Source of the DNA: Candidatus Jordarchaeales archaeon
GTDB lineage: Archaea; Asgardarchaeota; Jordiarchaeia; Jordiarchaeales; Freyrarchaeaceae
Assembly: GCA_038889235.1 (NCBI GenBank)
Contig: JAWAHN010000001.1
Location: 794,499-826,498 of the forward strand
DNA length: 32,000 bases
Direction: 5' to 3'
The stretch's first letter is position 1. Each line of letters opens with the position of its first letter. Below the pieces are notes generated by a model. The model saw only the letters and a program-made list of their open reading frames with translations. It ran no database searches and was not told where the DNA came from. This document shows, piece after piece, positions 2,793 to 22,117 of this stretch. Made by a program: the position numbers and the translations under genes.

Positions 2793-3191
2793 TTGGTTGA
2801 CGTAGCAGTAATATTAGGAAGCGAAAGTGACATGAAGGTGGCTGAGGGAGCTATAGAAGTCCTTTCGCAAAACGGGGTGAGCTTTGAGGTTAAAGTACTA
2901 TCAGCTCACAGGAATCCAGAGGAGCTAGAGAGGTACATCAAGGAAACTGACGCAAAGATTTTCATAGGAATAGCCGGATTAGCAGCCCACCTTCCGGGAT
3001 TCATCGCTTCCAGAACGGATAAACCCGTCATAGGCGTGCCCGTTAGCGCTAAATTAGGAGGGCTCGATGCGTTACTGTCGATAGTTCAAATGCCATCTGG
3101 AGTTCCGGTTGCATGCGTAGGAATAGACAATGCCAAAAATGCCGCGTACTTGGCTCTGAGAATCTTGAAACTAGCTAAGCTCGTTCGTTAA
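2793..3191 (+). CDS. purE: AIR carboxylase / N5-CAIR mutase
   Basis: [46 protein letters not shown] start after a GGGGG RBS. Confidence 0.95.
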
Positions 3192-3263
3192 TTTCTAAAT
3201 GATTTAAGCGTGGCGACGATTTTCTCATTTTACAATTTTTAAATAGTTTGTTGAGGTGGTTGT

Positions 3264-8285: not shown

Positions 8286-9326
8286 ATGGGCGTAAATCTG
8301 AGGGAACTTGTTGTTGCGCGACCGATATCTATTGGGGATCTTTCAGGTAAGGTCGTAGCGATAGACGCTATGAATGCGCTCTACCAGTTTTTAGCAACAA
8401 TAAGGCAACCTGACGGAACCAGCCTTATGGATAGTAGGGGGAGGATTACTTCGCACCTTAGTGGCTTATTTTACAGAACGGTTAACTTTCTGGAGGAAGG
8501 GTTGAAGCCTGTTTATGTTTTCGATGGAAAACCTCCTGTTCTGAAAATGAAGACGGTAGACGAGAGGAGGAGGATAAGGGAGGAAGCTAAAGAGAAGTGG
8601 GAGGAGGCATTAGCCAAGGGAGAGATAGAGGAGGCTAGGAAGTATGCTCAAGCTGCTTCATTCATAACAGATGAAATGATAGGGGAAAGCAAGAAGTTGT
8701 TAGAAGCGCTTGGAGTGCCTTATGTCCAAGCTCCTTCTGAGGGGGAGGCACAAGCAGCATATATGGTTAAAAAGGGAGATGCGTGGTGCACTGCAAGTCA
8801 AGATTACGACTCGCTTCTATTTAATGCGCCGCGACTTGTAAGAAATTTGACTATTAGTGGAAGGAGAAAGCTTCCAGGAAAAAAGGAGTACGTGAAAATT
8901 GAGCCGGAGCTTATACTCTTAGAGGAAGTTTTGAGGACACATGGGTTAACGCGGGAACAGTTGATAGCGATAGGCATCCTTTTGGGCACAGATTATAACG
9001 AGGGAGTTAAAGGCGTTGGCATCAAAACGGCCCTAAAGCTCGTCAAAGAATACGGTTCAATTAAAGAGATAATTAAGCGAAAAGGGTACGTTTTTGAGGT
9101 TCCAGCTGAGGAGGTAGAGCGGATTTTCTTAGAACCCGAAGTTAGTGACAACTACACTTTAACTTGGAGCCCTCCTGACAGCGAGAAAGTTTTTAAAATA
9201 CTTTGTGACGAACATGATTTCTCGCAAGAAAGGGTTTCTAAGGCCCTCGAAAGACTGGAAGTAAAGGGGAAGAAAGCGGAACGGGCTGGCAAGACTGCAC
9301 AAACCAGTATAGATAGATTCTTTTAA
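8286..9326 (+). CDS. fen: Flap endonuclease 1
   Basis: [45 protein letters not shown]; C-terminal PIP box QTSIDRFF. Confidence 0.98.
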
Positions 9327-10043
9327 TCGAAAGATGATTGCTCCCATCCATAGCGCCCTATAAGTGGGACAAAAGATACTGGACCGTAGTCCCTTTTCTT
9401 AATTTTGCCCTCTTCATCTTTTTCCACCACCACGAGCGTTTGGTTGTAGTAAAACCTGCCGATTGGTATAACCATGCGGCCTCTTGGTGCAAGTTGAGTT
9501 AGAAGCGGCTCAGGGATCGATGGGCCGGCAGCAGTCACAAGTATAGCGTCGTAAGGCGCTTCTGGAGGGTATCCCAGAGTTCCATCACCTAGAATAACAG
9601 TTACCCTGTCTCCGTACCCTGTCTTTTCTAAATTGCGCCTGGCGAAATCTACTAGTTCCTCTATGCGTTCTATGGTGTAAACGTGGCCGTGTTTTCCTCC
9701 TTCAGGAGCAACTATTTCAGCGCACAGTGCAGCGTGGTATCCCGACCCTGTTCCAACTTCGAGGACTTTCATCCCTTCGCGTAGCTTCAAGAGATCGCAC
9801 ATTAGAACGCACATATGTCGCCTAAAGGGCTTCAGTAAGCCCTTTAAGTGGCGCGGATATTGTTTGTCCTCCCGGTATGGGAAGGGGGCGATCGTCATAT
9901 GCGTACTTCCTTAAATCCTCTGGAACGAATTCTTCTCTAGGAACTTTCATGAACGCCCTAATTACGGCTTCATCTCTGACAAAACCTTCCTCTATAAGCC
10001 TTTCTATGAGGGCTTTTTTCTTTTCTAAGAGAGAGTCGTTCAA
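9323..10043 (-). CDS. pcm: Protein-L-isoaspartate O-methyltransferase, two exons (10043-9848 and 9816-9323), 229 aa after splicing
   Basis: N-part ...VPREEFVP...[18 protein letters not shown] and C-part HMCVLM...[10 protein letters not shown]...[12 protein letters not shown] are in different frames. Removing 31 nt rejoins the conserved QTISAPHM motif. Confidence 0.92.
9817..9847 (-). other. Putative 31-nt BHB-type intron in pcm mRNA
   Basis: mRNA-sense: CGCC-[AC^U]-UAAAGGGCUU-acug-AAGCCCUUUA-GGCG-[AC^A]. Perfect 4-bp central helix, 10-bp intron stem and two 3-nt bulges; cuts after bulge nt 2 restore the frame. Confidence 0.85.
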
Positions 10044-10130
10044 TTTATGGCGTCATCTCCTTTTTCCTTATTTTTATACTCGTATTTACTTTTAAAGTGC
10101 AACGCTCTTTAAAATTACGGGGGAGAAAAC

Positions 10131-10559
10131 ATGGTGAAGGTTGTTGAAAGAATAACAGCTAGAGGACACCCGAACATTTCAGCGAAGCATAAAACAACTT
10201 TGGAAATTACCATGGATCACGAGCTTACCCCTAGAGGGGACTGTATAATAGCGGTTTCGTCTGACAAAGGAGCAGCGTCACTAAGCGCCGCATTTAAAGA
10301 AATAGCTAGAGATGATGAGGCCATGATACGAATGATTATTATGTGCGGTGGGTTGAAGGAGGAGGTTGTAGGGTTTGGATGTAAAAAGCTAACTTTTACA
10401 CATACCAAGGACCTAGTTGCAAGAAAGAGTAACTATTGCTGTGGGAGAACCTTAATGATCAGGGCGAATAAAGCTGCAGCAGACTTGGATAGGCGAATAG
10501 TAGAAGAGCTAAAAAAGCCACAACTTGTAGAAATAATTCTCATAGTCGAGAAAATTTAG
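10131..10559 (+). CDS. DUF371-family protein
   Basis: ARGHPNISAKHKTTLEIT...LTPRGDCIIAV...RKSNY...RTLMIRANKAAADLDR matches the conserved archaeal family pattern. Confidence 0.85.
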   Translation: MVKVVERITARGHPNISAKHKTTLEITMDHELTPRGDCIIAVSSDKGAASLSAAFKEIARDDEAMIRMIIMCGGLKEEVVGFGCKKLTFTHTKDLVARKSNYCCGRTLMIRANKAAADLDRRIVEELKKPQLVEIILIVEKI

Positions 10560-10566
10560 TCTCCAT

Positions 10567-11679
10567 TTAAGGGCGAACTACCGCGTCTACAGCTATTTGC
10601 CATTCCCTAGGCGCTGTGGAGCGAACACGCCTAACATTTAAGACTTTCACAAGAGAAGCGCCTACTTCACCAAGCTGTTTTTCAAGAAATTTGACGACGC
10701 TATCACATGCATCCTTGTCCCTACCGAACTGGTAGTAGTGTATGACGCCACCTTTTTCCTTTAAAGCCAAGCATGCCACGTCAATAAATTTACATGCTGA
10801 ACTTGGAAGGTTCATTATCACGTGATCGGCTATCCGCTTTAGTTTGGCGTTAACTACCTCCCTGCAGTCTCCTAGGTGAGGATGAACTAAGCCGGATACC
10901 TTGTTCAGTTTAATGTTCTCTTCAAGAAGTTGTATGGCAAACGGGTTGATGTCTATGGCGTGCACGATGCCGCTCCTCATCTTTGCTATCAAAATGGAAA
11001 ACGGTCCTACTCCTGCGAAAAGATCGACAACGACCTCTCCTGGGTTAACCTGGCTGGCTACCCTAACCCGCTCCCCTGACAGGCGAGGGCTAAAATAGGT
11101 GTTGGCAACGTCAACCTTGAAGATACAACCATTCTCCTTGTGAAGGGTTATCGTCCGCGCTTCTCCGGCTATGTGAACTAGACGCCTAACTCTGTAAACT
11201 CCATTCACACGACCACCCTTAGCAAATACGGCTTTCACGTGACGATTTGATCTTAGAATAGCATCACCGACTGCACTCCTAAATTCCCAAATCTCAGGAT
11301 TCAGCTCTACAATGGCTATATCGCCTATAATGTCAAGGGAGTGAGGAATGTGGGTGAGAAAATTTTTGGGGACTACTTTTTCAAGTAGCTCACTAATCTT
11401 AGGTTGCTGTTCCCTTACGGGGAAAGAGTAAAAACAAACGTGAAGAAAACCGGATACCATCCTTAAGCGTTCGAGCTCTGGTTTAAGAAGAGGGCGGGTT
11501 ATGGGAAAGAGAACTAAAACACAACATGAGTCCGATGAGCTTGGAAACACATCTACGTCGACTCTTTCAACTTTGAGCTCATTACTCAAAACACTAAGTC
11601 CAGATAAAAGCCGGCGAATTGGCTCAGCAATTTTGGAACAAACAGCAATGCTAAGAGAGGAACGTCTCATAATTAACAC
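10567..11679 (-). CDS. trm5: tRNA G37 methyltransferase, Trm5/Met-10+ family
   Basis: DIIGDIAIV, TLHKENGC, YFSPRL, VVDLFAGVGPF, AIDINP, VIMNLP. Confidence 0.88.
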   Translation of the reverse strand: MLIMRRSSLSIAVCSKIAEPIRRLLSGLSVLSNELKVERVDVDVFPSSSDSCCVLVLFPITRPLLKPELERLRMVSGFLHVCFYSFPVREQQPKISELLEKVVPKNFLTHIPHSLDIIGDIAIVELNPEIWEFRSAVGDAILRSNRHVKAVFAKGGRVNGVYRVRRLVHIAGEARTITLHKENGCIFKVDVANTYFSPRLSGERVRVASQVNPGEVVVDLFAGVGPFSILIAKMRSGIVHAIDINPFAIQLLEENIKLNKVSGLVHPHLGDCREVVNAKLKRIADHVIMNLPSSACKFIDVACLALKEKGGVIHYYQFGRDKDACDSVVKFLEKQLGEVGASLVKVLNVRRVRSTAPREWQIAVDAVVRP

Positions 11680-11747
11680 TCCAAAATTTTCTGAAAATAA
11701 GTGCTACATCCGAAAACAAGTTATTGGCGGGCCGCGTGGGATTTGAA

Positions 11748-11776
11748 TTCGCGGGACTTAGACTGGCTACAGCCCA
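11748..11776 (-). other. 29-nt tRNA intron at position 53/54 (T arm)
   Basis: CGUG-[GG^U]-GGGCU...AGUCC-CGCG-[AA^U]: central helix CGUG/CGCG; removal restores GGGUUCAAAUCCC. Confidence 0.85.
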
Positions 11777-11807
11777 CCCACGACCACCGGGTTAAGAGCC
11801 CGGCGCT

Positions 11808-11823
11808 ATAGGCTCTACGCGAT
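11808..11823 (-). other. 16-nt tRNA intron at about position 22/23 (D arm)
   Basis: AGGU-[AG^A]-UC-gcgua-GA-GCCU-[AU^A]: central helix AGGU/GCCU, two 3-nt bulges; removal restores GGUAGAGC. Confidence 0.85.
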
Positions 11824-11876
11824 CTACCTAGCTAAGCTAGCGGCCCGCAGCCTACTGAAAAAAATGGAAAATGGTG

Positions 11877-11889
11877 TAATAAATTTTTT
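11877..11889 (-). promoter_or_regulatory. Possible BRE/TATA for the tRNA-Lys (and perhaps trm5) transcript
   Basis: Minus strand AAAAAATTTATTA, about 30 nt upstream of the tRNA 5' end. Confidence 0.45.
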
Positions 11890-12020
11890 GATGGGACGAA
11901 CAGGTAAAGAAAACAATAAAACGGCTATGGGGGATAGTATTCTAGCAAAACCCGGTAGAAAAGTGAGCCGAACGAAAACTGTACTTGTCTGCCAGAGTTT
12001 TAAGGAAGGATGGTGAAAAT

Positions 12021-13813
12021 ATGAAACTGCGATCCCCTATAGTTGTCGTCTTAGGGCATATCGATCATGGCAAAACATAGCACGGTTTCGTGCTATGGGC
12101 TAAACTTCGCTGTTGGATGCCATTAGGGGGACAGCGGTTCAAGCTAAAGAAGCAGGTGGTATTACTCAGCACATAGGAGCGTCTTTTCTGCCTTCAAATG
12201 TCATATTAAGCCTCGCTGAAGAGCTAGTTAAAAGATTTAACGTAACGCTCGACATACCCGGCGTGTTGGTTTTAGACACTCCGGGTCATGAGGCTTTTTT
12301 CAATCTTAGGGCGCGTGGGGGCGCCATTGCAGACATTGCCATATTAGTTGTAGACATCATACGTGGTTTTCAAACACAAACCTACGAATGTATCAACTTG
12401 CTGAGAAGTAGACGCGTTCCATTCCTGGTAGCAGCGAACAAAGTGGATTTAATTCCCGGGTGGCGTCCTTCCGGCTCCACATCAATTCTTAAGGCTCTTG
12501 CCTTACAGGATGATTACGTTAAAAAGGCTTTAGATGAAAAAATCTATGGACTAATGGGTGAGCTCTCCGCCTGTGGCTTTAACTCTGAAAGATTTGATAG
12601 GATACGGGATTTCACCAGAACTATCGCCATAGTACCTACAAGCGCTAAAACAAAAGAGGGCATTGCGGAGCTAATGATTGTTCTTGCCGGACTAACCCAG
12701 CAATACATGAGGAAAAGGTTAACTGTTTCTGAGGGGGAAGGTAAAGGCGTTGTTTTAGAAGTCAGAGAGGAGCCTGGACTTGGAACGACCATAGACGTCA
12801 TACTTTACGATGGAGTTATCCATAAAGACGACCTGCTGGTTATCGGTGGGCTTGACGGAGCTGTTGTGACGCGTGTTAGGGCGTTACTGCAACCCAAGCC
12901 GCTTGACGAAATGAGAGATCCAAGGGAAAAGTTTGATGCGGTTAACGAGGTAGCTGCTGCAGCTGGAGTGAAAATTGCGGCCCCATACCTTGAGAAGGTT
13001 ATAGCAGGTGCACCGTTAAGAGCTGTGCGCAGCGAAGAAAAAGTGAGAGAGGCTGCACATGAGGTGCAGCAGGAAGTTGAAAGCATTACCATAAGGGGGG
13101 ATCGCACAGGGGTCGTGATCAAAGCAGATACACTTGGGTCACTAGAAGCCCTTGTAAACTTTTTCAAGGAGAGGGGTGTACCTGTCAGAATAGCGGATAT
13201 AGGAGACGTCTCCAAAAGAGACGTCATGGAGGCGGCAGTTGTATCCGAGAAAGACCCGCTTCTAGCAGCCATTATAGCTTTCAATGTCAAAGTGTTGCCT
13301 GACGCGGAGGAGGAAGCTCAAAAGTACGATATTAAAATCTTCGAGGAAAAGATAATTTACAGATTGTTTGAAAAGTATAACGAATGGGTTATAGAAAAAC
13401 GAGAAGAAATGAGAAGACAGGCAGTCAAGGATTTGATTAGGCCTGCAAAGATAAAGATACTTCCGGGTTACGTTTTCAGGCATAGTAAGCCTGCCATAGT
13501 CGGAATCGAAGTGCTTTCAGGAGAAATTAGGCCAAGATATCCTCTGATGCGGGAAGATGGACGCGAAGTAGGAGAAATACTCCAAATACAAGATAAAGGA
13601 GAGACTAGAGAATATGCTCGAAGAGGAGAGCAGGTTGCAATTTCAATAAAGGGGCCTATCGTTGGAAGACACATCAATGAGGGGGATGTGTTATATACGA
13701 ATATGCCGCTGAGCCACATAGAGAAGTTTAAATCCGAGCTTGCGGAAGAGCTGACATCCGACGAACTTGAAACACTTAGGGAAATTGAGCGTGTTAAGAG
13801 ACAAAAAGGATGA
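12021..13813 (+). CDS. infB: Translation initiation factor aIF5B (IF2), two exons (12021-12074 and 12104-13813), 587 aa after splicing
   Basis: MKLRSPIVVVLGHIDHGK in frame +3, then TSLLDAIR...EAGGITQHIGA...DTPGHEAF...NKVD...KADTLGSLEA in frame +2. Removing 29 nt restores the G1 P-loop. Confidence 0.95.
12075..12103 (+). other. Putative 29-nt BHB-type intron in infB mRNA
   Basis: GGCA-[AA^A]-CAUAGCACG-guuu-CGUGCUAUG-GGCU-[AA^A]. 9-bp perfect stem, two AAA bulges, central helix with 3 of 4 pairs (G-U, G-C, C-G, A.G mismatch); in-frame UAG at 12078-12080. Confidence 0.82.
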
Positions 13814-15624: not shown

Positions 15625-15909
15625 ATGAAGGTAAGAGTTAAAGTGTTTGCAAGGTTAAGAGAGATTCTGAAGAACAGAGAAGTGGAAGTGGAGCTAAGTG
15701 AGGGAGCCACGATTAAAGATCTTCTACTCATGTTGATAAAAACGTATGGCAGGGAGCTCGAAGATTACCTTTTCTCAGAAAACGGAAACCTCAGGGAGCA
15801 CTTTGTGATTTACATCAACGGGATTGGAATGAACGAAGCGGGGGGAGTAGGGAGGACTCTCAAAGATGGGGATGTGATTGCAATTTTACCTCCAATAAGT
15901 GGTGGCTGA
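15625..15909 (+). CDS. Ubiquitin-like MoaD/ThiS (SAMP) protein
   Basis: VRVKVFARLRE...INGI...LKDGDVIAILPPISGG with C-terminal di-Gly; GGAGGGG RBS before ATG 15625. Confidence 0.92.
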   Translation: MKVRVKVFARLREILKNREVEVELSEGATIKDLLLMLIKTYGRELEDYLFSENGNLREHFVIYINGIGMNEAGGVGRTLKDGDVIAILPPISGG

Positions 15910-17194
15910 GGGAGCAGAAGTGACCACGGTCTCAGTCATAGTTCATGGTTGTTCTATGAATCAGGCAGAGGCTGAAATTGCTATGGGATTGCTCAGGGAG
16001 GCGGGGTCTACCCTTACGCCCCCCGATGAGGCTGAAGTCGTCATAGTTTTGACGTGCGGAGTTAAAGCCCATGCTGAAAACGTTTGTCTAAGGGTCGGAT
16101 CCGAGCTCGCCAGAAAAGGCAAGAAAGTGATAATGGCCGGATGCCTTCCTGCAATTTGCCCTGAAAAAGTAGAAGCGACTGGTTGCGCTGCAATGATGGA
16201 CCCGAATTCTATTTCAAGCATAGTGGAAGTCGTTAAACGCGTAGAAAGAGGCGAGAAAGGATTAAGGTTTTTAAGCACAGAAAAAAGGGTGCGTCTAGGA
16301 CTACCCAGGGTCCGATTACGACCACTGATCGCGATTGTCCCCATATCGGAGGGGTGTAAAGGCGCTTGCAGTTACTGCTGCGTCAGAATAGCTAGAGGAG
16401 AGCTCTACTCATACCCACCTGAGTTTATAGTGGAAGAGGTAAAAAGAAGCATTAGAGAAGGATGCAAAGAAGTGTGGTTGACTTCTCAGGACTCAGGAGC
16501 GTATAATTACAAAGGAGTCAGACTGCCGCAACTTCTTAAGAAAATAGTAGATGTTGACGGAGACTTTATGGTACGTGTCGGAATGATGAACCCAAACCAT
16601 GCCGCCGAAATATTGGATGAACTGATAGAGGTGTACGATAACCCAAAGATCTACAAGTTTATTCATATACCGGTCCAGTCCGGTAGTAATAAAGTTCTAA
16701 GGGATATGAATAGGAAATACACTCGAGAAGTCTTTCTGGAAGTTGTAGATGAGCTGCGGGGAAACTATCCATTGTTAACATTGTCAACAGATGTCATCGC
16801 AGGCTTTCCTGGAGAAAGCGAGGAAGAATTTTATGAAACTGTAAGTTTGTTGAAAGAAGTGGAACCTGATATAGTGAATATCTCGATGTTTACACCTAGG
16901 CCACACACTCCTGCCGCCAAAATGCCAAACAAACTGCCTGGATGGGAGATAAAAAGGAGGAGTAGAATACTCACCCAAGTTTCAAATGAGCTATCTCTCA
17001 AACGCAACATGAAGTGGGTGGGTTGGGTTGGGGAGGCCATCGTGACTGAAGTAGGCAGAAAGGGAGGTGTTATCGCTAGAAACTACGCATACAAACACAT
17101 AGTGGTGAGAGAAGACGTTAAACTTGGGGAGAAAATTAAGGTTAGGCTGAGTGAGGCAAAAATAGGTTACTTGTTTGGTTCCATCTGCATGTAG
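15899..17194 (+). CDS. MiaB/MtaB-family radical SAM tRNA methylthiotransferase
   Basis: UPF0004 domain (GCSMN, TCGV, GCLP), CKGACSYC radical SAM motif, HIPVQSGS, C-terminal TRAM domain. Alternative start GTG 15920. Confidence 0.92.
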   Translation: MVAEGAEVTTVSVIVHGCSMNQAEAEIAMGLLREAGSTLTPPDEAEVVIVLTCGVKAHAENVCLRVGSELARKGKKVIMAGCLPAICPEKVEATGCAAMMDPNSISSIVEVVKRVERGEKGLRFLSTEKRVRLGLPRVRLRPLIAIVPISEGCKGACSYCCVRIARGELYSYPPEFIVEEVKRSIREGCKEVWLTSQDSGAYNYKGVRLPQLLKKIVDVDGDFMVRVGMMNPNHAAEILDELIEVYDNPKIYKFIHIPVQSGSNKVLRDMNRKYTREVFLEVVDELRGNYPLLTLSTDVIAGFPGESEEEFYETVSLLKEVEPDIVNISMFTPRPHTPAAKMPNKLPGWEIKRRSRILTQVSNELSLKRNMKWVGWVGEAIVTEVGRKGGVIARNYAYKHIVVREDVKLGEKIKVRLSEAKIGYLFGSICM

Positions 17195-19549: not shown

Positions 19550-20353
19550 CTAAAATAAACTTTGCTTGACGGGCTTGTAGATCCACTTCAGGTTTTTCAC
19601 TCCCTTGATGATCTCACCGCTTCCCGTGATGTTGATCAGAAGCGCATCCGTGTTTTGTGCAAGCCACTCGAGAAGAAGTTTAGCGTACTTAAGTTTCTTC
19701 CTCTTTAAAGGAGAAGCGCAGATATCGGTTTTATATTCCGGTTTAGAAAAACGACTAACCTTGTCGCCGAAGTCGAAACCGGCAAGAAGAATAGTGTGAG
19801 AGCCCATTGCTTCCGAGATAAAAGCTGCCCTATCGCCGTCGGTGAAACCGAAAAAGTTTCGAACACAGCCTATCGGTTTAACTTGAGTTGTTCCAATAAC
19901 AGGGCCTTCAAAGTCTTTAACATTTTCTAACAGGTGGATATTGTCTCCGTGTGCATGCACAGCCACCACAGAACCTTTAGATGATGCATAAAGTATGTCT
20001 TTGAGCCTCCCATCTAAGTCTGTGACAATTAGATCCGGAAGAATACCCTCGTTCAAAAGAGCCGTTGTAGCGCCATCGGCAGCCACGTTCAGGCAAACCT
20101 TTTCAAGACCCACCCTCTTAATTTCTCTTATGTTCCTTTCCAGCGACGGACCGCAACCATACACTATAACGCACCTATTGCTGAGGGCGCTTGCAAGCAT
20201 GTTTAAAGCACTTTCAACATCTCTCCCTTCAAGTAGAGATGCAAGTTTTTCCGTTGCTTCCCTGTCTTTCTCTGCACTAAAGTTGAAGTCTTTAACAATC
20301 TTTAAGTACCATTTCTCCCAATCTTCGTATGTAACTCTAAGCGTAGCTTTCAT
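19550..20353 (-). CDS. mptE: 6-hydroxymethyl-7,8-dihydropterin pyrophosphokinase (DUF115)
   Basis: GCGPSL, AADGA, IVTDLDG, VHAHGDN, GFTDGDRA, GFDFG. Confidence 0.88.
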   Translation of the reverse strand: MKATLRVTYEDWEKWYLKIVKDFNFSAEKDREATEKLASLLEGRDVESALNMLASALSNRCVIVYGCGPSLERNIREIKRVGLEKVCLNVAADGATTALLNEGILPDLIVTDLDGRLKDILYASSKGSVVAVHAHGDNIHLLENVKDFEGPVIGTTQVKPIGCVRNFFGFTDGDRAAFISEAMGSHTILLAGFDFGDKVSRFSKPEYKTDICASPLKRKKLKYAKLLLEWLAQNTDALLINITGSGEIIKGVKNLKWIYKPVKQSLF

Positions 20354-21729
20354 CCCCTTTCAAAAATTCTCAGTACTTCATCTAATTTCGGCATGCTTTC
20401 TTTCAAGTTTGCTTTTTGAGCTGCAGCAACACTTGTTGCGATGCCGAAACGGGCACTTTCAGCCAATCCGTTTCCATCAAGTATGGATTTTATAAAACCT
20501 GCTAAGAAAGCGTCTTTGGCCCTTTTCCCATCTAAAACATCTGCGTTAATCCCTTCTACGTCTATCTTTCCTTTTTCAATGTAAATTGTGCAACCTTTCT
20601 TTATTCCTTTAAAGACAACCACGCATCGTAATCCTTGTTCGAAAAGACGCGAAATTTCGCCTGCATCTTTTGACAGTATATTCCAGCCCTTTTCTCCTAA
20701 GACTAAGAAGTCAGTGTTCCTTAGCATTCCTTCAACGTTTTTGAAGCCGCTTTCGAGAAGAAACGTCGCGGGTCTGTAGAAAACTTTCACTCCGCTCGCC
20801 TTAGCATAGCTGGCAAGCAACTCACCTATTTCCTTAAACACTTCGCAGATGCAAATAGCCTTAGAGTTTTTTATCAGGTCCCAGTTCACTTCTCTAGGGT
20901 CCGAAAGTGACAAAGCAGTCTTCGCAGTTGCCGTAACATAAATCCTTTTCTGTCCTTTCTCGAAAATTGTTAAAGTCATTGGGGTGTATAGTTTATGGTC
21001 AATCACGAGGTTCGACGTGTCAACCCCCTCATTTAATAGGTGGCTTATTATCTGCCATCCCAACATATCGCCGCCGATTTTCCCCGCAAAACTTACTTTC
21101 ACATTAAGTCTTGAAAGGGCTATGGCAACATTTCCACCAGAACCACCCATGGTTTCTTGAAAGTCGTAGAGGAGGTTAAGAGTAGAAGAGGTCTGCTCAC
21201 TATAAAGGAGGTAGTCCACTGATGCGACGCCGTAGACCACAACTTCTGGCTTAAATGAAGCCTTTTGAAATTTAGCTAGACTGGTTGCAACGGCTACAGA
21301 GAAAGCCTCTTTGAGTCTTTCAACACCCATACCTTTTTTGAGACAAAGCTCTGCTATGTTGTTCAGGTAGGATTTGAGTAATTCTTCTAAGACTTTCTCT
21401 AAATCTGTCGATGGAAGACGCCTTTTAAACATCAGAAGAAGCCAGCGACCAACGTTGGTGGGTTTATACCATATGACGTATTTTCCTTCTTCAAGCTTGT
21501 ATTCTTTTTCTAAAACGCCTAGTCGAACCAAATTCTTCAAATGAGAGATGACGGTCTTATTGGAGTGCCTTAGCTGTCTTATTATGTCCTTCTGCGTCTG
21601 GACGCCGCGGTCAATTTTTTCCAGTATTTCAAGGGATATGGGTGACCCGAATACCTCCAGTAGGAAAGTTTTTAATTCGTAAGGGTTCGCGGGAAGGAAT
21701 AGGAGGTATGGCCAGTTCTCACCCATCAC
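20350..21729 (-). CDS. Winged-helix plus PfkB/ribokinase-like fusion protein
   Basis: N-terminal wHTH (QKDIIRQL...SHLKNLVRLGVL); PfkB motif GGSGGNVAIALSRL...GKIGGD; C-terminal DGKRAKDAFLAGF. Confidence 0.82.
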   Translation of the reverse strand: MMGENWPYLLFLPANPYELKTFLLEVFGSPISLEILEKIDRGVQTQKDIIRQLRHSNKTVISHLKNLVRLGVLEKEYKLEEGKYVIWYKPTNVGRWLLLMFKRRLPSTDLEKVLEELLKSYLNNIAELCLKKGMGVERLKEAFSVAVATSLAKFQKASFKPEVVVYGVASVDYLLYSEQTSSTLNLLYDFQETMGGSGGNVAIALSRLNVKVSFAGKIGGDMLGWQIISHLLNEGVDTSNLVIDHKLYTPMTLTIFEKGQKRIYVTATAKTALSLSDPREVNWDLIKNSKAICICEVFKEIGELLASYAKASGVKVFYRPATFLLESGFKNVEGMLRNTDFLVLGEKGWNILSKDAGEISRLFEQGLRCVVVFKGIKKGCTIYIEKGKIDVEGINADVLDGKRAKDAFLAGFIKSILDGNGLAESARFGIATSVAAAQKANLKESMPKLDEVLRIFERG

Positions 21730-22117
21730 TAGGATCCTCCTCGATTCTTTCTATAAACATGAGGGGATATTTAAGCTCTGGAACATACTTCATTCCTGCG
21801 GAAACCTTTGTTCGCCCATATTTTACTACTAACCTGACTGATAGATTTTTACCGTCGAGTTCAGTGTAGCCGTATTTGTTTAATTCATCATCCTGCGGCA
21901 GTTTAATTTCAACGTGTACGGATTCAACGTAAGGTTGGCAGGAAACGGCTGTCTCTATTGCCCTTTCTATTGCCGAAATATTGTTCCTTGATAAAGGAAC
22001 ACCTGTGAATTGATGATAAATTGCCCCTAGTTTTATTCCTGCTTCGAAAACAGCTCTATCCCTGTCTGAAACGTTGCTCCCAAAAAAGCGCTTAACAGTA
22101 TCTTCCACGTTTTCCAC
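21719..22117 (-). CDS. mptD: Archaeal dihydroneopterin aldolase (DUF381)
   Basis: DRDRAVFEAGIKLGAIYHQFTGVP...QPYV...YGYTEL...LKYPLM. Confidence 0.88.
   Translation of the reverse strand: MENVEDTVKRFFGSNVSDRDRAVFEAGIKLGAIYHQFTGVPLSRNNISAIERAIETAVSCQPYVESVHVEIKLPQDDELNKYGYTELDGKNLSVRLVVKYGRTKVSAGMKYVPELKYPLMFIERIEEDPSDG

Follow-up and report, generated by a model that had tools for sequence, protein, structure and literature searches.

Bulge-helix-bulge introns very likely interrupt pcm, aIF5B and other protein genes, as well as a tRNA-Lys gene, in a Jordarchaeia archaeon

Introduction

In the metagenome-assembled genome (MAG) of a Candidatus Jordarchaeales archaeon, here called G000, two protein genes stand broken by short inserts: pcm, for protein-L-isoaspartate O-methyltransferase, and infB, for the translation factor aIF5B. 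Between them lies a tRNA-Lys(CUU) gene that is broken twice. Are these genes disabled, or are their transcripts spliced? The window analyzed here is a stretch of 32,000 nucleotides (nt), positions 794499 to 826498 of contig C1 (G000:C1:794499-826498). A preliminary description of it proposed that all four inserts are bulge-helix-bulge (BHB) introns, which the tRNA-splicing endonuclease EndA would cut and the ligase RtcB would seal, and that the organism routinely splices mRNAs in this way. From the comparisons reported below, we consider it highly likely that the four inserts are genuine archaeal BHB introns spliced by EndA and RtcB, as in at least about 15 protein genes of G000.

The G000 assembly comprises 2.14 Mb in eight contigs and is 95% complete. 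The samples whose DNA contains G000 sequence are hot-spring metagenomes. Jordarchaeia are the same group as Freyarchaeia.

Results

The pcm insert in ten genomes

The first pcm exon matches positions 2 to 58 of the Pfam PCMT profile (E value of 6e-14), and the second matches positions 61 to 208 (E value of 1.6e-49). Joining the exons at the bulge cut sites gives ...GQTISAPH^MCVLMC..., where the caret marks the junction, and makes the match to the PCMT profile contiguous. The same codon is interrupted in the same way in 10 genomes. Six are Jordarchaeia (G000, three congeners, the sister genus, and one genome from another family of the order), and four are Bathyarchaeia MAGs (L137, L141, L142, and L151), in which the intron lies about 75 nt upstream of locus position 601. 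Among pcm loci from other organisms, 63 of 79 are contiguous. The nearest named loci to the pcm gene of the window belong to Candidatus Jordarchaeales JZ-1_202007_bins_29 (88% identity), Jordarchaeia QC4 (87%), and Jordarchaeum sp. LHC_1308 (79%).

The ten introns measure 25, 29, 31, 31, 31, 32, 32, 34, 47, and 48 nt. These lengths leave different remainders on division by 3, which rules out translation of the insert. The hairpins are unrelated in sequence; the central helix (H) is always CGCC:GGCG or CACC:GGUG and the bulges are always AC|N and AN|A, the bar marking the cut. Both forms of the helix occur among the Bathyarchaeia introns, which are 31 to 48 nt long. All ten genomes pair at positions H1 to H4 and at positions 1 to 5 of the intron-side helix (h'). 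At six of these nine positions we found two to four kinds of Watson-Crick or G.U pair; H1, H3, and H4 are invariant C:G pairs, and H2 changes from G:C to A:U among the relatives. Splicing leaves both exons open and yields GQT[IV]SAPH^M in every genome, which is not the behavior of an insert that is translated or decaying.

Two further observations concern this gene. The conserved S-A-P-H motif of the protein encodes the 5' half of the pcm BHB, and this may make the codon a preferred site of insertion or retention. A MAG filed as "Thermoproteota archaeon S9B3_HD70" (JAPDJY010000008.1; L124) is 79% identical to the window in pcm and carries the pcm intron and the second tRNA-Lys intron, as G000 does; since it behaves as the sister genus of G000, the Thermoproteota label looks wrong.

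The infB insert

The long second exon of infB matches the Pfam families GTP_EFTU, GTP_EFTU_D2, IF-2, and GTP_EFTU_D4, and joining it to the first exon completes the P-loop, GHIDHGK^TSLLDAIRG. The junction peptide aligns without a gap to the orthologue in G011, an Asgard genome from a different class that is complete at 1.418 Mb (E value of 1.3e-20). An in-frame UAG lies at window positions 12078 to 12080, one codon inside the intron, and unspliced mRNA would give a 19-residue peptide.

All four genomes of the genus have the infB intron, with 27 to 29 of its 29 bases identical. The sister genus lacks it to the base: its gene reads CAT GGG AAG ACA GCG (HGKTA) and continues unbroken as HGKTALLD. 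The intron is likewise absent from all of the more distant relatives compared. The exons of G000 and genome G003 differ by 245 synonymous and 89 nonsynonymous codon differences out of 560. Over the intron, 27 of 29 bases are identical between the same two genomes, and across the genus the changes are confined to the third base of a bulge (A/U) and one loop base. Codon differences that are mostly synonymous place the gene under purifying selection, and the intron is constrained even more tightly; its conservation is too high for covariation to show.

We searched G000 for second copies of pcm and infB, which the preliminary description had named as evidence that would count against it, and found none. 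The next-best matches to the two genes in the genome are paralogues, 33% and 35% identical.

The tRNA-Lys inserts

Neither ARAGORN nor Rfam finds the unspliced tRNA-Lys gene between pcm and infB, but with both inserts removed, ARAGORN calls a canonical 77-nt tRNA-Lys(CUU). An alternative register for intron 1 (11807 to 11822) gives the same product. This intron is specific to the genus, where it measures 14, 16, 22, and 22 nt, and it is absent from the sister genus. All five family members that were compared have intron 2, at 22 to about 30 nt, and its central helix is compensated among the relatives (CGUG:CACG and CGCG:CGCG).

With introns allowed, ARAGORN called just 14 tRNA genes in this 95% complete genome, and one of these calls, a tRNA-Thr with a 1,333-nt "intron," is probably spurious. 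Most tRNA genes of G000 must hide behind multiple noncanonical introns. From 92 to 95% of Freyarchaeia tRNA genes have been reported to bear introns (PMC11291895).

Shared geometry of the four inserts

The register of each insert was fixed independently, by protein or tRNA homology. We relied on pair counts at these fixed registers because minimum-free-energy folds of the inserts with their flanks (ViennaRNA) recovered the intron hairpins but in some cases missed the BHB itself. All four inserts were found where the preliminary description had placed them and with the lengths it gave (31, 29, 16, and 29 nt). The common geometry that it described holds for the two 3-nt bulges, the four-position central helix, and the intron stem; it is too tidy for infB, where the central helix has three pairs and an A.G mismatch, making the motif a relaxed one, and for tRNA intron 1, with its very short inner stem. 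The other three central helices pair at 4 of 4 positions. The intron-side helix has 8 to 10 base pairs (bp) in pcm, 8 in infB, 5 in tRNA intron 2, and 2 in tRNA intron 1. Each insert has only a weak exon-exon helix (h), as had been said, and in the pcm alignment this helix pairs at h1 and h4 alone. A helix this weak makes the motifs members of the relaxed HBh' type, which needs an enzyme of broad specificity. Cutting each bulge behind its second base had been proposed to restore the host sequences, and it does so: it yields SAPH^M in pcm, GHIDHGK^TSLLD in infB, and the canonical 77-nt tRNA.

At one fixed register, chance alone would give a full central helix and an inner stem of 2 bp or more with a probability of about 0.003, and three or more central pairs together with an inner stem of 8 bp or longer with a probability of about 1e-4.

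A genome-wide census of interrupted genes

We used the 1,842 open reading frames (ORFs) of G011 as the reference for a tblastn census of G000, naming the genes from the Pfam matches of the G011 orthologues. A motif-free pass collected pairs of high-scoring segments that are adjacent in the query and parted by extra DNA in G000. It gave 13 solid split junctions with 14 to 59 extra nt, clustered at 29 to 34, of which 10 have an exact BHB solution. The remaining three (C2:361432, C2:394977, and C2:461133; 14 to 16 extra nt) have none and look like weak alignments. We also counted about seven ordinary frameshift junctions in G000.

In a BHB-guided pass, each BHB-like site was spliced in silico, and a gapless alignment to a G011 protein across the junction was required. 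With E values of 1e-13 or less, this pass found 15 loci under the real pairing rule and 1 under a decoy rule, and the lone decoy locus adjoins a real intron. Matches between 1e-8 and 1e-13 (4 real, 10 decoy) are not above background and were not counted. Since the census is limited to genes shared with G011 and to inserts that break the frame, about 15 is a lower bound. The high-confidence loci, and two further ones from the motif-free pass, are listed in Table 1.

Seven of the 16 mRNA introns are exactly 29 nt long, and 12 are between 27 and 31 nt. Their bulges are A rich (A[AGC]|N and AA|[AT]), the second being nearly always AA|A or AA|U. The length peak and the bulge composition may reflect a ruler or a sequence preference of the G000 EndA. 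A blastn-short search of 18 introns against G000 returned self matches only; the introns have no shared sequence, unlike a mobile repeat or a family resembling miniature inverted-repeat transposable elements.

The cbf5 intron, about 9.4 kb past the end of the window, has the motif CACU AG|A ... GGUG AA|A and splits the codon for the catalytic Asp (GTLD|P). The preliminary description had placed introns in protein genes beyond cbf5; this was correct, and the cbf5 gene of G000 bears an intron as well.

Splicing enzymes

G000 encodes both enzymes that the proposed splicing would need. Two genes match PF01974 (EndA). The copy on contig C1 (C1:1056473; 196 amino acids) matches the catalytic alpha subunit of A. 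pernix, 3p1z_B, at 4e-47. It aligns with that subunit without a gap across the crenarchaeal-type loop, YGQPLGIRKPKTPQF, and keeps the Tyr, His, and Lys residues. The copy on contig C3 (C3:444309; 195 amino acids) has Ala at the His position and for this reason appears to be a structural, beta-like subunit. RtcB is encoded at C1:704115-705422 (600 bits). Among splicing endonucleases, the (alpha-beta)2 and epsilon2 types are the ones described as cutting relaxed, noncanonical motifs (PMC5829648). How the G000 enzyme assembles, and with what specificity, we infer from its two genes.

Positions of the features and neighboring sequence

Table 1. Interrupted genes and their candidate introns in G000. 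Plain numbers are window positions; positions with C1 or C2 are contig positions. Bars mark the cut in each bulge.
Feature	Position	Strand	Length (nt)	Details
pcm exon 1	9848..10043	-		protein-L-isoaspartate O-methyltransferase; ends ...GQTISAP plus base 1 of the His codon
pcm candidate BHB intron	9817..9847	-	31	H CGCC:GGCG; bulges AC|U, AC|A; inner stem 8-10 bp
pcm exon 2	9323..9816	-		last two bases of the His codon, then MCVLMCDLL...
tRNA-Lys(CUU) gene	11725..11846	-		two introns, encoded CCA; exons 11824-11846, 11777-11807, 11725-11747
tRNA candidate intron 1	11808..11823	-	16	D-arm, after nucleotide 22; H AGGU:GCCU; bulges AG|A, AU|A; inner stem 2 bp
tRNA candidate intron 2	11748..11776	-	29	position 53/54; H CGUG:CGCG; bulges GG|U, AA|U; inner stem 5 bp
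infB/aIF5B exon 1	12021..12074	+		18 codons, MKLRSPIVVVLGHIDHGK
infB candidate BHB intron	12075..12103	+	29	H GGCA:GGCU; bulges AA|A, AA|A; inner stem 8 bp
infB/aIF5B exon 2	12104..13813	+		TSLLDAIRG... to the stop codon
Census: EF-2	C1:445935-445963	-	29	
Census: NuoCD-like	C1:549831-549889	-	59	
Census: gatE	C1:615266-615296	+	31	
Census: PEP synthase/PPDK	C1:711449-711466	+	18	
Census: Ogg	C1:738901-738940	+	40	
Census: pcm	C1:804315-804345	-	31	
Census: infB	C1:806573-806601	+	29	
Census: cbf5	C1:835887-835915	+	29	
Census: rpl44e	C1:836938-836966	+	29	
Census: unknown	C1:964013-964040	+	28	
Census: DnaG/Toprim	C1:972079-972112	-	34	
Census: Ras-like GTPase	C1:996247-996276	+	30	
Census: alba	C2:123973-123999	+	27	
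Census: aconitase-family	C2:318659-318687	-	29	
Census: further locus	C2:133882-133910		29	motif-free pass
Census: further locus	C2:145890-145918		29	motif-free pass

Two intact genes lie between the interrupted ones and have no insert: a DUF371 gene at window positions 10131 to 10559 (plus strand) and a gene for a tRNA methyltransferase of the Trm5/Tyw2 family at 10567 to 11679 (minus strand). A scan that combined the BHB motif, open-frame joining, and a hexamer coding score was useless, with 46,177 real and 32,287 decoy matches; adjacent genes mimic exon pairs. For three of its candidates inside the window, Pfam matches showed nothing more than the border between neighboring genes: 15905 to 15941 (ThiS and MiaB-like), about 3148 to 3261 (PurE and an oxidoreductase), and the boundary of the adjacent minus-strand ORFs 21719-22117 and 20353-21729 (DHNA and PfkB). 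Four of the ordinary frameshift junctions, of the +1/-1 kind, fall within 8 kb at C1:888700-896600, together with uncertain BHB candidates at 894297, 895499, and 895632; this may be a low-quality region of the assembly or a decaying element.

Discussion

The comparisons suggest the following course of events. In the primary transcript, the insert and the last six bases of exon 1 would form a 4-bp helix with a 3-nt bulge at each end, on opposite strands, and set on the intron hairpin. A heteromeric EndA, made of the alpha subunit and the His-less beta-like subunit, would cut after the second base of each bulge, and RtcB would join the exons to give intact pcm mRNA, intact aIF5B mRNA, and mature tRNA-Lys(CUU). 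The same process would act in at least about 15 protein genes, including cbf5, EF-2, rpl44e, gatE, alba, and dnaG. The tRNA-splicing enzymes of G000 thus very probably splice many mRNAs, to judge from the genome. Folding, cleavage, and ligation in the cell, and their efficiency, we infer from the same evidence.

Several points weigh against this account. The inner stem of tRNA intron 1 is a mere 2 bp, and the infB central helix pairs at just 3 of 4 positions. All four motifs are relaxed, with a weak exon-exon helix, so that cleavage rests on an assumed broad-specificity enzyme, and the roles given to the two EndA subunits are read off their sequences. Archaea also couple transcription to translation, so that the cell would need some way to avoid or tolerate the translation of unspliced mRNA.

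Splicing has to be set against explanations that do without it. If the pcm and infB inserts were disabling, the two genes would be pseudogenes or decaying, and the tRNA inserts alone would be real introns. Without splicing, both protein genes are indeed frameshifted or stopped, and ordinary frameshift junctions do occur elsewhere in G000. Yet infB is an essential, single-copy gene and pcm is also single-copy; the infB exons, with 245 synonymous against 89 nonsynonymous differences, bear the mark of purifying selection. The pcm insert occupies one codon in ten genomes of two phyla, with compensatory changes and open exons, and EF-2, rpl44e, cbf5, gatE, and dnaG hold the same kind of insert. On this sequence evidence, gene decay appears close to refuted, and we give it only a very slim chance. 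Errors of assembly or sequencing could be a source of inserts, given that G000 is a MAG in eight contigs and that ordinary frameshifts cluster at C1:888-896 kb, but the same sites recur with diverged sequence in JZ-1, QC4, LHC_1308, S9B3_HD70, and G006, MAGs assembled independently in different studies and from different samples, which makes the chance of an artifact negligible.

Translation could in principle deal with the inserts if the ribosome hopped over them, leaving the RNA unspliced. The bypass elements of T4 gene 60 and the mitochondrial byp elements bear a superficial resemblance to hairpin-forming inserts of about 30 nt with an early stop codon, and in infB the stop comes almost at once. 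Neither gene, however, offers a matched pair of take-off and landing codons: a ribosome landing on the only downstream AAA of infB (12102 to 12104) would resume in the wrong frame, and pcm has no CCA or CAC landing codon before exon 2. The tRNA gene, in which no translation is involved, has inserts of the same geometry, and the positions that are conserved and covary are those of the BHB (H helix and bulges) rather than codons. Bypassing is therefore very unlikely. The remaining proposal accepts the introns as real and spliced and makes their splicing a regulated switch as well, after the manner of XBP1 and Ire1. It was offered in the preliminary description by analogy only. The conservation of the infB intron (27 of 29 bases) is unusual, yet the constraint of the BHB alone could explain it. 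The hosts are a functional mix of housekeeping genes, the introns have no common sequence motif beyond the BHB, and their presence and absence differ between sister genera; such a pattern suggests that the introns come and go neutrally, like those of tRNA genes. We found no support for a switch and think it unlikely.

The other proposals of the preliminary description fared better. Routine splicing of mRNAs is borne out, as far as a genome can go, by the covariation and varying length of the pcm intron, the exact presence or absence of the infB intron in sister genera, selection on the exons, the enzymes present, and the census. The genome-wide scan that it suggested turned up about 15 protein genes against 1 for the decoy rule, and the genome encodes a catalytic alpha EndA subunit, a His-less beta-like one, and RtcB, for which it had recommended a search. 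Apparent pseudogenes had been suggested as possibly intact, and the purifying selection on exons, the lack of second copies, and the covarying pcm insert agree with this.

The closest known system is the crenarchaeal cbf5 intron (Watanabe 2002; Yokobori 2009, PMC2738675), likewise a short (19 to 39 nt) relaxed BHB in coding sequence. Its hosts have a heteromeric (alpha-beta)2 EndA, which the genes of G000 resemble, and the crenarchaeal introns disrupt the codon of a catalytic residue (Yokobori 2009, PMC2738675), as the cbf5 intron of G000 does. The site common to G000 and Crenarchaeota could reflect shared ancestry or convergence. The differences are that G000 belongs to an Asgard lineage, that the genes interrupted in it comprise pcm, aIF5B, and about a dozen more, and that crenarchaeal cbf5 splicing has been shown experimentally, whereas that of G000 is predicted from sequence. 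The HVO_1309 mRNA of Haloferax volcanii is also an mRNA substrate of an archaeal endonuclease, being cut by EndA (Schwarz 2020, PMC7714728), but there a single gene of a euryarchaeon is cut by an alpha2-type enzyme, while in G000 many genes are involved and conserved coding sequence is broken. In the Ire1/RtcB splicing of XBP1 and HAC1, a protein endonuclease and RtcB-type ligation likewise remove a short mRNA intron and change the frame; the endonuclease is Ire1, the RNA motif is another one, and the process is regulated by stress.

Noncanonical tRNA genes with multiple introns are found in Thermoproteales, where the introns are of the same type as the two in the tRNA-Lys of G000, and in Freyarchaeia and Atabeyarchaeia (Valentin-Alvarado 2024, PMC11291895; preprint 10.64898/2026.10.13.758758), which share both intron type and lineage with G000. 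The two papers on Freyarchaeia and Atabeyarchaeia treat tRNA genes only, and we found in them no mention of coding-sequence introns. A 2023 review counted cbf5 and HVO_1309 as the only two spliced archaeal genes and expected more (PMC10485636); predictions in other genes were unconfirmed (Yokobori 2009, PMC2738675). In the literature on BHB introns in coding sequences of Asgard or other archaea, we found nothing beyond cbf5, HVO_1309, and these old predictions. The mechanism is known, and the novelty lies in the scale, in the genes that serve as hosts, and in the lineage.

It is likely that Jordarchaeia (Freyarchaeia) routinely interrupt essential protein genes with BHB introns of 27 to 31 nt and need EndA and RtcB to obtain translatable mRNAs. 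If this is true, the prokaryotes most closely related to eukaryotes have a protein-only system that splices mRNAs genome-wide, and the presence of some 15 or more such introns in one genome would make endonuclease-mediated mRNA splicing a general layer of gene expression. For annotation, it would mean that aIF5B, EF-2, rpl44e, cbf5, gatE, dnaG, alba, and pcm are miscalled as split genes or pseudogenes, which would distort reconstructions of metabolism, estimates of completeness, and sets of phylogenomic markers for Asgard archaea. It would also raise the question of how these cells avoid translating unspliced mRNA when transcription and translation are coupled. The pcm codon is shared with Bathyarchaeia and the cbf5 codon with Crenarchaeota, which points either to introns inherited from far back or to repeated gains at favored sites, and through these shared sites the gain, loss, and site preference of introns in archaeal coding sequences would become directly testable.

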